From the NCBI GenBank assembly GCA_964500505.1, contig CAZCNN010000004.1, positions 1 to 58,266 on the forward strand: DNA of 58,266 nt, in the 5' to 3' direction. Source of the stretch: an uncultured Bdellovibrionales bacterium (GTDB taxonomy: Bacteria > Patescibacteriota > Minisyncoccia > Moranbacterales > UBA1568). Under the pieces are notes generated by a model that did not search any database, was not told the origin of the DNA, and saw nothing but the letters and a program-made list of their open reading frames with translations. The position numbers and the translations under genes are program-made. Below, piece by piece: positions 3,125-58,266 of the stretch (the stretch's first letter is position 1; the number at the start of each line of letters is the position of its first letter).

Positions 3125-3167
3125 AAAAAGTTTCGGATCAAACTTCAACAAAAATCTCGCTGGCCTG

Positions 3168-3190
3168 CCTGCCGGTAGGCAGGGATTTTT
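3168..3190 (+). terminator. Terminator-like hairpin CCTGCC-GGTA-GGCAGG followed by GATTTTT
   Basis: Perfect 6-bp stem. The 18-mer at 3163-3180 is the exact reverse complement of 10501-10518. Confidence 0.4.
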
Positions 3191-10474: not shown

Positions 10475-10542
10475 GCGGGTATAGTATAGTGGTAATACCC
10501 GCCTACCGGCAGGCAGGCGTGACCCCACCAGACCGTTAGAAC
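10475..10542 (+). repeat. tRNA-like 5' element plus CCTACCGGCAGG palindrome in the tRNA-Gly(CCC) leader
   Basis: GCGGGTA-TA-GTAT-AGTGGTA-ATAC mimics an acceptor strand and D arm, but also folds as an 8-bp hairpin GCGGGTAT/ATACCCGC. No anticodon or T arm follows. Confidence 0.55.
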
Positions 10543-10616: not shown

Positions 10617-10675
10617 ATTGCGGTCAGGCAGGCAGGGATTTTTACCTGTCCTTTGGCGGGCTCTTTACCCGCTCA
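10617..10675 (+). repeat. tRNA-Gly(CCC) trailer element homologous to 2738-2782
   Basis: ATTGCGGTCAGG is shared with 58052-58063. GGCAGG-GATTTTTA-CCTGTC parallels GGGCGGG-GATTTTTA-CCCGTCC with an A-T to G-C compensatory change. It ends TACCCGC-TCA, complementary to GCGGGTA at 10475. Confidence 0.6.
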
Positions 10676-10680
10676 AATAA

Positions 10681-15224: not shown

Positions 15225-15500
15225 ATGTCGTACGTATTCAAACTAAAATTAGAGAAAACGAAGTCCGAATTGGCTCTGATTGAAGATGGAACAGTCAAGG
15301 CGGTTCGGACCTGGCCCGAAGCCAGGGACATGGGGACCAAGGTGTTTGAAGCGATGGCCGAGATACTGAAGGGGGAGGGGATGCGACCAGAGGCGGTCTC
15401 AGAATTTGTGGTGGAGTCAGAGCTCCCTGATGTCTATACTTCGACGCGCATTGCCGAAACGATCAAAAAAGTGTATGCTTTTGGTGTGAAGCAGAAGTAA
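15225..15500 (+). CDS. Small protein resembling the N-terminal half of TsaB/YeaZ, degenerate (tentative)
   Basis: 91 aa. ELALIEDGTVKAV...ILKGEGMRPEAVSEFVVESELPDVYTSTRIAETIKKVYAF parallels the TsaB pattern (..ALl.dg.v....l...g....dl..ivv..GPGSYTGlRIg...ak.la). The GPGS motif is replaced by ELPD. Confidence 0.4.
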   Translation: MSYVFKLKLEKTKSELALIEDGTVKAVRTWPEARDMGTKVFEAMAEILKGEGMRPEAVSEFVVESELPDVYTSTRIAETIKKVYAFGVKQK

Positions 15501-15593
15501 GAGGGTTACCTCATGTGAAGTACCTTGTGGATCGTCAAAAAACCAATATATTTTTAAATGAGGGCCTATTTTGAGCCATTTTTTGGTTTCTGT

Positions 15594-53121: not shown

Positions 53122-53164
53122 TGCTATGCTGGAGGCATCCTGCCTACCGGCAGGTAGGTATTTT
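53122..53164 (+). promoter_or_regulatory. TGCTATGCT -10-like box followed by overlapping palindromes CCTGCC-TACC-GGCAGG / CCTACC-GGCA-GGTAGG and a T-run, upstream of nrdR
   Basis: The 12-mer CCTACCGGCAGG (53143-53154) also occurs at 10503-10514, and as its reverse complement at 3168-3179. Confidence 0.4.
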
Positions 53165-53674: not shown

Positions 53675-55147
53675 ATGGAGAAGGATCGGGTCTTCCTCTC
53701 TGTCGTCCTCGCCTGTATCGGTGGTATCGCCGTGGGCTCGTTTGTGACCCTGCCACTTCTCCCACTCTCCTTGCTTTCGGGGGCCATCGCTCTCGCTTTT
53801 TGGGTGGTCTATCCGGGGTGGCGGACGCTGTGCCTCACTTTGTGTCTCATGTGTTTCGTGTGGGGAGGAGAGGTGACGGCGGTCGAGCGTGAGCATTATG
53901 CGTCGCTCGTTTCTCCGGGTCTCGTCACAGGGACGGTACGGGTAGTCGGTAATCCCGAGGAGCGAGATACCTACCGACGTACGATACTTCGCTTTAGCGG
54001 CTGTGAAGCAGGTCAGTGTCCCAAGGAGCGAGTCCTCTGGCAGGCGCCCCTCGGTCTCACAGTGTCACCGGGGGCACAGTTTCGGTTTTCTTGCGAGCTC
54101 GCCGTCCCAGAGAACTTCACCTCGGAGTTTGACTATCGTATGTTTCTCGCGAAGGAGAGGATAGGGAGTACCTGCCTCCGCGGTGGAGTAGCAGAGCGTC
54201 TCATGGTGGATACGCGTGAGCGCCTCACTACGTTCCTCTATCTCCCCAAGCACGCTCTCGAGCAAGCACTCTCGCAGGCACTGGTCGAGCCTGAGGCTGG
54301 ACTGGCCAAGGGTCTCCTCCTCGGTGGCGACCACTATCTGCCGGAGGCACTGAAGGATGCCTTTACCGCAGTCGGGCTCTCACACATGATTGCCGTCTCA
54401 GGATACAACATCACCATCATTGCAGGACTCCTCCTCTACTGTGGGCTGTTTTTTGGGCTGTGGCGACGTCAGGCGATCTGGTCGGTGCTCATCGGCATTG
54501 TGTTTTTCATTGTCATGATTGGTCTCCCGGCCTCCGCGGTTCGAGCGGGGGCGATGGCGAGTGTCGTCTTTGTGGCGCTCCAGCTTGGACGGCTGGCTCA
54601 ACCAGTCAATGCGCTCCTCTTGGCTGGGGCAGTGATGCTCTTCATGAATCCACTCCTCTTTCGCTACGATCTCGGCTTTCAGCTCTCGTTTCTCGCTACC
54701 CTCGGAATCCTTTGGATTGCACCGTATCAAGAGCACCTCTTGCCTCAGCAGCCCGTGCTCCGCCAATTGAGTGAAGTACTCATCGTGACGCTCGTGGTCG
54801 AAGTGTTTGTGCTCCCTATCATCCTCTTCTCTTTTCATGTTTTCTCGCCGGTTATCATCATCGGTAATTTCTTGGTGTGGCTGGTACCCATTGCAATGGC
54901 TCTGTCGTTTCTCTCGGGCATACTTTTTCTCATCATGCCAGGGGCTCATCTCGTCGCAAGTCCCTTGGCCTACCTCGTCCTCACCACTATCACGAGGAGT
55001 GTCGAGTGGTTGGGGAGTCTCGAGGCTCTCATCCGAGTCGAGCACTTTGGTCCCTGGCACCTCACCCTGTGGTATGTCATACTCGCGATAGCTATCCTCT
55101 TCATATCAAGGCACTTCCCTCGAATTTCCTATGCGTACCGGGTATAA
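53675..55147 (+). CDS. comEC: ComEC/Rec2 DNA-uptake channel (DUF4131 plus Competence domain only)
   Basis: GLAKGLLLGGDHYLPEALKDAFTAVGLSHMIAVSGYNITII and multiple TM segments. No C-terminal metallo-beta-lactamase domain in this ORF. Confidence 0.9.
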   Translation: MEKDRVFLSVVLACIGGIAVGSFVTLPLLPLSLLSGAIALAFWVVYPGWRTLCLTLCLMCFVWGGEVTAVEREHYASLVSPGLVTGTVRVVGNPEERDTYRRTILRFSGCEAGQCPKERVLWQAPLGLTVSPGAQFRFSCELAVPENFTSEFDYRMFLAKERIGSTCLRGGVAERLMVDTRERLTTFLYLPKHALEQALSQALVEPEAGLAKGLLLGGDHYLPEALKDAFTAVGLSHMIAVSGYNITIIAGLLLYCGLFFGLWRRQAIWSVLIGIVFFIVMIGLPASAVRAGAMASVVFVALQLGRLAQPVNALLLAGAVMLFMNPLLFRYDLGFQLSFLATLGILWIAPYQEHLLPQQPVLRQLSEVLIVTLVVEVFVLPIILFSFHVFSPVIIIGNFLVWLVPIAMALSFLSGILFLIMPGAHLVASPLAYLVLTTITRSVEWLGSLEALIRVEHFGPWHLTLWYVILAIAILFISRHFPRISYAYRV

Positions 55148-55982
55148 ACTCCTCCTTTTGTCGCTTGCTGTCATCGCTCTCATGGGCGGGCTCCTCCTGT
55201 GGCACCTGTCGCTCCTCTCGAAGCAGGCCGAGGTAGTGTTCCTCGATGTGGGTCAGGGCGATGCTATCCTCATCATCGACGGCAGTCACCAGATACTCAT
55301 CGATGGTGGACGTTCTGGGCGAGAGCTCCTCGCACGTATCGGGCGTCATGTCCCGTTCTGGGATCGGCAGATTGAGCTTGTCATCGCGACTCATCCGGAT
55401 GCGGACCATATTGGTGGCCTCCCAGCTCTCCTCCGTACCTATCGGGTGCTCCAGGTCATGACGACGGGGGCGGAGAGTGAGACTGAGACGTCGCGCTTGT
55501 TTCAAGAGGCCATCCGCCAGCGGACCGGTGGGCCACCGCTCCAGGTTTTTCGGGGGACCGAGATACAACTGCCGAGTGGTGGCGTACTCCGTATCGAGTA
55601 CCCGTTGGCACCTATTGATGGAGTGGTCCCAGATGGCGACACCAACGAGGGGAGTATTGTCGCCCGCCTCACGTATGGCGAGACGAGTTTTCTCTTCACA
55701 GGCGATCTCCCACGAGAGGAGATGGTCCTTGTAGATGAGGCACCAGTCACCGTCCTCAAAGTGGCGCACCACGGCTCCAAGCATTCATCGAGCGCTACCT
55801 TTCTCAACCAAATTCGACCCAAAGAGGCAGTAGTCTCGGTAGGGGAGAATAGCTATGGTCATCCAGACCCCGGCGTGCTCGGACGGCTCGAGGCACTTGG
55901 CGCCATCATCCGCCGGACCGACCAGGTTGGTGATGTCGTCTATCACTGTACCGACCTGAAACAATGCGCCTATGTTCCATAG
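55131..55982 (+). CDS. Membrane-anchored metallo-beta-lactamase-fold hydrolase (ComEC C-terminal domain encoded as a separate gene)
   Basis: VVFLDVGQGDAILI, ATHPDADHIGG, KVAHHGSKHSS. N-terminal TM segment. Overlaps the comEC 3' end by 17 nt in another frame. Confidence 0.88.
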   Translation: MRTGYKLLLLSLAVIALMGGLLLWHLSLLSKQAEVVFLDVGQGDAILIIDGSHQILIDGGRSGRELLARIGRHVPFWDRQIELVIATHPDADHIGGLPALLRTYRVLQVMTTGAESETETSRLFQEAIRQRTGGPPLQVFRGTEIQLPSGGVLRIEYPLAPIDGVVPDGDTNEGSIVARLTYGETSFLFTGDLPREEMVLVDEAPVTVLKVAHHGSKHSSSATFLNQIRPKEAVVSVGENSYGHPDPGVLGRLEALGAIIRRTDQVGDVVYHCTDLKQCAYVP

Positions 55983-55991
55983 GCTTGAGAG

Positions 55992-56020
55992 TTGCCAAAG
56001 GGGAGAAAGCCCGCTATACT
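55992..56020 (+). promoter_or_regulatory. Putative promoter TTGCCA-17-TATACT
   Basis: TTGCCA at 55992-55997 and TATACT at 56015-56020. Confidence 0.5.
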
Positions 56021-56085
56021 ACTTTCCGACGTAGAAAAAGGTCACCGAGTTGCCAAGAATGACGCTCCGTGTCATAATTATCTGG

Positions 56086-56269
56086 GTAACTCTCTCACAT
56101 CTCATGTCTCTAGAAAATGTTCAGATTTCGTGATGAAAATCATGAAAAGTGAGGAGGGCTATCATGATAACCTGACGAGCTTTGAGAGGTTTTCAGCCGA
56201 AATCTGGACGTTTTATGAGACAAGTATTTGCTTCTTATACAGGGAAGCGGTGAGATGTGAGAGAGTTAC
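56086..56269 (+). ncRNA. Candidate 184-nt highly structured RNA (long irregular hairpin, unknown family)
   Basis: 19-bp perfect closing stem (56086-56104 with 56251-56269), coaxial TGTCTC/GAGACA (56105-56110 with 56217-56222), and a 17-bp helix (56114-56130 with 56198-56214). That helix contains two U.G pairs that would be A.C on the other strand. There is a 28-nt 3' bulge and the apical hairpin ATCATGA-16nt-TCATGAT. Confidence 0.5.
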
Positions 56270-56298
56270 TTGTATAAGTTTTTAGATTCAAAACGTGT

Positions 56299-57985: not shown

Positions 57986-58021
57986 AATGACGATGAAAAA
58001 TTCCCCGGAGCATGAGGCCTA

Positions 58022-58074
58022 GGTTCCCCACTTGCAACGCTTATGCGTAGCATTGCGGTCAGGGATTTTTACCC
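58022..58074 (+). repeat. Second copy of the GGTTCC-hairpin-CAGGGATT module seen at 101-148
   Basis: 43 of 46 nt identical to 101-146. Continues TTTTTACCC as in the tRNA-Gly trailers. Confidence 0.7.
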
Positions 58075-58266
58075 ATCAGGCAGTAGCCTATCACTTCGAG
58101 GGCTCGGCCGAAGACGTTGGGCCCGTGGCATTTGTCCGGGGTGACCGCGTGGTGTTTCACTCGAGTGTCCCACAGGGCATCGTCACCCAGTTCGGCGTCG
58201 ATGAGGAGCCACTCATTGTCCTCGAATACGTCGAGTCGGCTGCGACTACCCTTGTGTGTCGCGACC
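58059..58266 (-). CDS. 3' end of a GC-rich ORF running off the window (hypothetical)
   Basis: Hand translation of the minus strand gives ...WLLIDAELGDDALWDTRVKHHAVTPDKCHGPNVFGRALEVIGYCLMGKNP-stop (stop codon is the complement of 58059-58061). About 63% GC on one sampled line. Not in the supplied ORF track because it has no start codon in the window. Confidence 0.35.
   Translation of the reverse strand, partial: VATHKGSRSRLDVFEDNEWLLIDAELGDDALWDTRVKHHAVTPDKCHGPNVFGRALEVIGYCLMGKNP

Follow-up and report, generated by a model that had tools for sequence, protein, structure and literature searches.

Several families of small mobile repeats in bacteria are known to fold into hairpins. [quoted passage not shown] They land near promoters or leaders, and where they are co-transcribed the processing or stability of the mRNA is changed. 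These families occur in tens to hundreds of copies per genome, and we know of no description of strand-specific G.U or G.A conservation for any of them. REPs are short, G+C-rich and abundant and flank a RAYT gene, and derivatives of IS200/IS605 have neither terminal inverted repeats nor target duplications; both the REPIN-RAYT system and the IS200/IS605 derivatives are hairpin-forming, strand-specific single-strand substrates of a mobilising enzyme. A review that covers Correia, ERIC and RUP (PMC3184786) also describes bcr1 (group A bcr) of the Bacillus cereus group, a mobile repeat of about 155 bp with short direct repeats, which is transcribed and has a multi-helix RNA fold with compensatory changes. 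Here we analyse a long hairpin upstream of ndk, the gene for nucleoside-diphosphate kinase, in contig CAZCNN010000004.1 (58,266 nt; this whole stretch is called the window below). A first reading made from the letters of the window (the sequence-only reading) had taken the hairpin for a candidate plus-strand RNA and had named a MITE as the alternative. We propose, with a probability of roughly 0.75, that it is one copy of a family of non-autonomous, MITE-like foldback elements of about 185-200 bp, present in Candidatus Moranbacteria and other uncultured hosts.

Among the systems compared, bcr1 appears to be the closest precedent. Like the element described here, it is small, non-autonomous and interspersed, its positions are not conserved between close strains, and its fold is held by compensatory changes (PMC3184786). 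The two share no sequence relationship, however, and their hosts are Firmicutes and uncultured candidate-phyla bacteria, respectively. The duplication made by bcr1 is 5 bp long compared with an apparent 3 bp (TNA) for the element, and its cruciform of two stem-loops differs from the shape seen here, a three-way junction that has a single long arm and carries a tandem-G.A module. In addition, bcr1 is known to be transcribed, whereas transcription of the element is a prediction. Correia, ERIC and RUP resemble the element in size, hairpin shape and position near promoters, although the element looks low-copy in comparison. It differs from REPIN and IS200/IS605 elements in its inverted ends of 21-22 bp, its TNA-like duplications and the lack of a Y1 gene among the neighbours listed. 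A literature search found no paper on MITEs in candidate-phyla bacteria, and these bacteria are not mentioned in a MITE survey of 183,232 genomes. The family appears to be undescribed so far and to belong to a known kind of element.

An element inserted between the ndk promoter and leader

In the window's species, the element is inserted between a conserved ndk promoter and a conserved ndk leader. The spacer that holds it is 316 nt long and runs from a gene with a ComEC metallo-beta-lactamase domain (end 55982) to ndk; the G+C content of the element is about 40%, compared with about 55% in the flanking genes. All 12 contigs of this species, which came from different samples, carried the element at an identity of at least 97.5%. 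In a sister species (L011), DNA identity to the window is about 93% over 2.5 kb of flank, and Ndk is 99% identical. Both promoter boxes and the leader are shared with the window, but CATAATTATCT-ATGA-TAAGTTTTTAG stands in place of the window's approximately 190 nt. BLASTN found the element absent from all 80 species-representative ndk loci that were fetched, where the region upstream of ndk held the short leader only, with a recognisable promoter before it in the closer relatives. In L011-L017, all without the element, the proximal box TGTCATAAT was invariant and stood immediately 5' of the short leader. The absence from the sister species and from the ndk loci of relatives indicates that the element is neither a housekeeping RNA nor a regulator of ndk conserved with the gene. 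Ndk homologues at 80-95% identity carry the names Candidatus Moranbacteria or Moraniibacteriota.

The promoter TTGCCA-17-TATACT, which the sequence-only reading had placed before the hairpin, was recovered as the distal of two tandem promoter-like sites. This site and the proximal one, TTGCCA-17-TGTCATAAT, are both kept in several Moranbacteria species that lack the element. The element starts 7-8 nt past the proximal -10 box, which we infer to be about +1 to +3 of the transcript, given the predicted start.

A second comparison of filled and empty sites was provided by the copy that lies between a 91-aa ORF and rpoB, upstream of rpoB (L093), for which the window itself is the empty site. Its flanks align to window positions 17115-15538 and 15499-15105, with the element sitting between them. 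The flanks share 75-81% identity with the window. For the whole element the identity is 88%, and over its first 139 nt it reaches 96% when the comparison is with the copy in same-species contigs such as L001. Since the element is closer than its flanks, these values suggest either recent movement between the lineages or strong constraint.

The ndk leaders of L016 (about 2470-2500) and L012 (about 86-106) are 12-17 nt longer than that of L011. In the L016 leader, the 16-mer TTTGATGAGAGAAGTA matches element positions 56211-56226 at 14 of 16 nt (5/2000 shuffles), and it is possibly the scar or remnant of an older insertion at the same site. No significant remnant signal was seen in the L012 leader (74/2000 shuffles).

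The other copies were found by searching with the translation of the element's open frame among gene calls and then fetching the contigs. Counting the window, the family occupies 13 sites, 12 besides it (Table 1), and two empty sites illustrate its presence and absence among related genomes. This dispersal of copies with terminal inverted repeats bore out the MITE alternative. The copies measure 184-200 bp, within the range of about 50-800 bp that is usual for MITEs, and have no coding capacity; MITEs carry terminal inverted repeats of at least 10-15 bp, and those of the window copy are perfect over 19 bp. Relative to the neighbouring genes, seven copies are co-oriented, five are opposite and one is ambiguous. 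A profile search of the window and about 480 kb of other loci revealed no copies beyond those listed, and a metagenome scan with the window's 14-nt ends as sole probe returned the ndk locus only. Phage and plasmid records contained no match, and neither did viral contigs, which were searched with three patterns.

The bounds of the element were set from a conserved G to a conserved C, which appear as GTAAC...GTTAC, GTATC...GATAC or GAGCC...GGCTC. Exact 3-nt duplications of the flanks were observed for L100 (TAA/TAA), L097 (TTA/TTA) and L102a (TCA/TCA), compared with about 0.2 such cases expected by chance among 13 copies. In four more copies the flank triplets agree at two of three positions, and TNA flanks are present at 7/13 left and 6/13 right ends. 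The middle base of the three exact triplet pairs is the same on both sides and not complementary, which argues for duplication rather than extension of the hairpin. Where the sequence-only reading had named dispersed copies with target-site duplications as the mark of a mobile element, the dispersal was found and the duplication was exact in 3/13. A 3-bp TNA target duplication is likely from these flanks. Targets of 3 nt have been described for the IS1031 group of the IS5 family (PMC2516522). Stop codons, directly after which some of the copies lie (Table 1), may be tolerated TNA targets.

In one copy (L095), the ORF of a GNAT acetyltransferase continues in frame into the left arm of the element, and its ...AEVSIYL codons overlap AGTATCTATCTC. 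The arms of this copy pair poorly (-61.8 kcal/mol). This arrangement could have arisen by a microhomology-mediated rearrangement or as a chimera of two copies made during assembly.

Fold of the element and its conservation among copies

The plus strand of 56080-56275, folded as RNA, reached -92.1 kcal/mol, while dinucleotide shuffles averaged -47.0 ± 3.8 kcal/mol (z = -11.8, 0/200). The minus strand of the same region reached only -67.4 kcal/mol, about 25 kcal/mol poorer than the plus strand. With DNA parameters the asymmetry between the strands was still there but smaller (-48.8 vs -41.0 kcal/mol). When the full ndk leader was folded, the hairpin formed an independently folding domain within it.

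The 19-bp perfect closing stem of the sequence-only reading was confirmed, with arms at 56086-56104 and 56251-56269 that are 100% complementary; neither arm occurs elsewhere in the 58-kb window. In the minimum-energy fold of 56084-56271, however, three helices (P1, P2 and P3) meet in a three-way junction without a central bubble, and the rod-like shape proposed earlier was not retained. G.U pairs extend the closing stem out to 56084/56271, so that P1 of the window copy has 22 pairs (56084-56105 with 56250-56271). The 17-bp helix (56114-56130/56198-56214) does contain the two U.G pairs attributed to it, 56118.56210 and 56121.56207, but these are not the total for the fold, which has 12 G.U pairs. 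The internal loop past the 5-bp base of P2 is 3x2 instead of 2x2. The region 56222-56249, previously taken for a 28-nt bulge on the 3' side, itself forms an 8-bp hairpin (P3, 56229-56236/56242-56249). Three symmetric 5'-GA/5'-GA (tandem G.A/A.G) loops are present in the apical part of P2, and GAGGAGG is their purine strand in the minimum-energy fold. The apical 7-bp hairpin whose loop contains GAGGAGGG belongs to an alternative fold only. Of the aligned copies, as we read them, about half retain its central pair, compared with 12 of 15 for the matching pair of the extended rod.

A hammerhead motif was considered for the apical region, which contains CUGACGA...CGAAA, and was rejected, as helix II does not form (by eye) and no ribozyme model matches.

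The statistics of the fold were calculated on an alignment of 15 copies with 62 pairs and 928 cells, for which RNAalifold returned the same three-way shape. Standard pairs were found in 94.4% of the cells, and both sides had changed at 25 of the 62 pairs, compared with 13.0 ± 2.0 pairs in shuffles (0/500). As a control, the 3' partners were slid by 1-3 columns, and pairing fell to 30-50%. A set of 8 copies gave the same outcome. P1, with 21 pairs, was present in every copy and showed compensatory changes at 10 of these pairs. P1 and the lower part of P2 covary freely, while the apical module (...GAAAAGUGAGGAGGGCUAUC..GAUAACCCGACGAGCUUUGAGAGG...) is conserved in sequence, and its tandem G.A/A.G loops were found in 11-14 of the copies.

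The paired cells comprised 807 Watson-Crick, 69 G.U and 10 A.C pairs. G.U was held in at least 10 copies at three pairs, and A.C never repeated at a position. The better fold was on the same strand of the element in every copy. The proposal that the G.U pairs point to a plus-strand fold, first made from the window copy, is therefore strengthened, although the copies are related by descent, so that shared G.U and G.A positions represent few independent events. The fold is under selection, on one strand.

Mobile element, single strand or host function

As a MITE-like element, the hairpin would be moved in trans by a transposase encoded elsewhere. The enzyme would most likely be of the DDE type and, in the manner of the IS1031 group (IS5 family), duplicate a TNA target of 3 bp. 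Propagation would be limited to copies keeping the fold and the apical module, which would explain the covariation. In the window, the element would be transcribed from the ndk promoter and form the very start of the ndk mRNA. The transcript would thereby gain a highly stable structure at its 5' terminus, in which the 22-bp P1 would be a substrate for double-strand-specific RNases, and altered 5'-end-dependent decay or RNase cutting would be likely. An effect on ndk would therefore be a by-product, acting through mRNA stability or processing, rather than dedicated regulation.

Several observations weigh against this interpretation. No transposase was found in the window, where 30 ORFs were scanned and only housekeeping families were seen, or beside any copy located. 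The target duplication is exact in only three copies, and the flanks of the window copy are TGG/TTG. Both comparisons of filled and empty sites, with L011 and at the L093 site, are not clean simple insertions. The copy number looks low, with one copy in the 58-kb window and none in about 450 kb of other loci, and most of the copies came to light by way of genes called in one open frame of the element, which makes them a biased sample. Both orientations relative to the host genes were seen, so the conserved strand is not consistently the transcribed one. Finally, cut-and-paste transposition by a DDE enzyme acting on double-stranded DNA does not, taken by itself, account for the conservation of the fold, the G.U pairs and the tandem G.A loops on one strand.

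The main rival explanation, which addresses the strand directly, is that the functional unit is the fold, in a mobile element whose movement or action is that of a single strand. The element would then be a new class and not an ordinary DDE-type MITE; we regard this as unlikely. In one version, a single-stranded DNA (ssDNA) intermediate could be handled by an HUH/Y1-type enzyme, as in REPIN-RAYT or IS200/IS605; in another, the unit could be an RNA whose tandem-G.A apical module binds a protein. The strand specificity of the fold fits such a unit, with its conserved U.G pairs and its excess of G.U over A.C cells, and the three tandem G.A loops would become pyrimidine-pyrimidine clashes on the opposite strand. 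The stems covary, but the apical module keeps its sequence. Which strand of the element folds better does not depend on its orientation to the host genes, and the asymmetry is also seen under DNA parameters. Nevertheless, the flanks resemble a TNA target duplication, which IS200/IS605-type transposition does not produce, and the element ends in genuine terminal inverted repeats. Near none of the copies was there a Y1/HUH gene, a reverse transcriptase or a convincing internal promoter, and the common descent of the G.U and G.A positions applies here as well. The proposal that the element is more than the decaying remnant of a transposon, namely a mobile, strand-specific structured nucleic acid whose apical tandem-G.A module is a protein-binding site, either as an ssDNA transposition substrate of an unrecognised enzyme or as an RNA function travelling between genomes, is a tentative one with a low but real chance of being correct. 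If true, it would introduce a new class of structured mobile elements in bacteria for which none has been described.

Functions for the host were judged to be much less probable. A cis-regulatory ndk leader (riboswitch, thermometer, attenuator or stabiliser) selected at this locus would account for the placing of the element precisely between promoter and start codon of ndk in sense orientation, its independent folding within the leader and its presence in all the sampled contigs of the species. It is nonetheless very unlikely, as the sister species and the 80 fetched loci have the same gene, and most close relatives have the same promoter, without the element, which elsewhere adjoins unrelated genes in either orientation. 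Moreover, a terminator scan made no call before ndk, and no contiguous U-tract follows the stem. The idea of a resident, stand-alone RNA gene, for example one for 6S RNA or a different housekeeping RNA that acts in trans, came from a length of about 185 nt, a mostly helical fold, the adjacent promoter and the plus-strand G.U pairs, and it has become extremely improbable. 6S RNA (RF00013) is of similar length and largely double-stranded, but searches of the window and five other copies against Rfam, at gathering and permissive (E<=10) thresholds, matched neither 6S RNA nor any other family and gave miRNA and snoRNA hits at chance level only. The three-way junction has no central bubble, the element is missing at the ndk loci of close relatives and dispersed in multiple copies at unrelated loci, and no terminator was called before ndk. 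We give almost no credence to a small protein encoded by the 97-aa ORF at 55992-56285 or by a shorter ORF within the element. In its favour, one frame stays open across the entire element of the window, and gene callers predicted ORFs in several copies. However, no Pfam family matches the ORF, a 1-nt insertion in L002 and a stop in L091 interrupt the frame, and the longest open frame differs among the copies. The variable columns are spread evenly over the codon positions (37/54, 38/53 and 36/54). An apical mini-ORF (Shine-Dalgarno-like GAGGAGG followed by AUG, M-I-T-stop) was rejected too, as its start is not conserved and the loop reads CAUG, CGUG, CGCG or CGAG depending on the copy.

These results remove a false lead towards a candidate-phyla 6S RNA or an ndk riboswitch. 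The element is closer between species than orthologous genes are, which points to recent exchange among small-genome lineages. Its fold is unusually well supported for a MITE, and the family could therefore serve as a test case for selection as single-stranded DNA or RNA. The filled and empty ndk leaders constitute a natural experiment on 5'-terminal structure and expression.

Feature coordinates, neighbouring genes and minor observations

Table 1. Positions of the proposed mobile element, its parts, the host locus and the other copies (window coordinates unless a contig is named).
Feature	Position	Strand or orientation	Basis or remark
Inserted element, probably mobile, about 185 nt, first letter the G in GTAAC, last letter the T in GTTACT	56086..56270	+	filled vs empty site; family members
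P1 left arm (terminal inverted repeat)	56086..56105	+	pairs with 56250-56269
P2, long irregular arm	56106..56221	+	5-bp base, 17-bp helix, then apical module; covariation in helices 2-5
P2 apical module	56143-56186	+	three tandem G.A/A.G loops; UAU/AUA stem and 4-nt loop as cap
P3 region, side hairpin	56222..56249	+	sequence and length vary among copies
P1 right arm (terminal inverted repeat)	56250..56270	+	pairs with left arm
Distal promoter-like site TTGCCA-17-TATACT	55992..56020	+	10/12 consensus positions; belongs to host locus, not to element
Proximal ndk promoter-like site TTGCCA-17-(TG)TCATAAT	56050..56078	+	-10 box CATAAT with upstream TG; ends 7 nt before hairpin
Conserved ndk leader TAAGTTTTTAGATTCAAAACGTGT, called ancestral	56274..56298	+	also in species without element
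ndk coding sequence, 201 aa	56299..56904	+	Pfam NDK E = 9e-36; Moranbacteria nucleoside-diphosphate kinase homologues
Empty site for L093/L094 copy, between 91-aa ORF and rpoB	15500..15540	.	alignment of L093 flanks
L093/L094 copy		opposite to both genes	between 91-aa ORF and rpoB
L098/L099 copy	L098 2950-3145	same as gene	right after TAA stop of UDP-glucose dehydrogenase gene
L100 copy	L100 256-445	same as gene	right after TAA stop of upstream gene
L104a copy	L104 4093-4284	same as gene	right after TGA stop of upstream gene
L096, L097, L101, L103 and L106 copies			other intergenic sites
L102 and L104 second copies		inverse to first copy	6.5 kb (L102) and 3.5 kb (L104) from first copy
L105 copy			grouped with L104 as one locus
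L095 copy	L095 339-767		truncated GNAT gene at left, ndk leader at right

Upstream of ndk, ComEC is split into two overlapping ORFs, 53675-55147 and 55131-55982, one with DUF4131 and Competence domains and the other with the metallo-beta-lactamase domain. The same split was observed in all same-species contigs. Ndk (201 aa) matches the 135-position Pfam NDK model in two stretches, suggesting an insertion relative to typical Ndk that is common to all relatives retrieved.

One contig of the window's species (L091) has about 765 extra nt, at 1217-1993, between the stop of the ComEC metallo-beta-lactamase ORF and the distal ndk promoter. This insert has its own promoter-like site and a 196-aa ORF with an HD_4 domain (Pfam E = 1.4e-10). 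HD_4 genes lie near copies of the element in L091, L098 and L102. A link between these genes and the element was considered and is probably a coincidence, because identity between the L091 protein and that of L102 is only 29% and because L098 is syntenic with L102.

ARAGORN and Rfam found four plain tRNAs only in the window. A duplicate of the first 53 nt of tRNA-Pro (242-294) lies at 49-101. In the region of the duplicate (49-160), GGGTTC[CCCGCCTGCAACGCTTATGCGTAGCATTGCGGGCAGG]GATTCC comes next and has the look of a T-loop with a hairpin of about 37 nt interrupting it, and a 93%-identical copy of this hairpin is present near a tRNA-Pro at the other end of the window (58010-58080). Short G+C-rich palindromes ending in GGGATT(TTT) were observed at 2738-2784, 3163-3187, 10494-10518, 10631-10677 and 53139-53158, several of them near tRNA genes.

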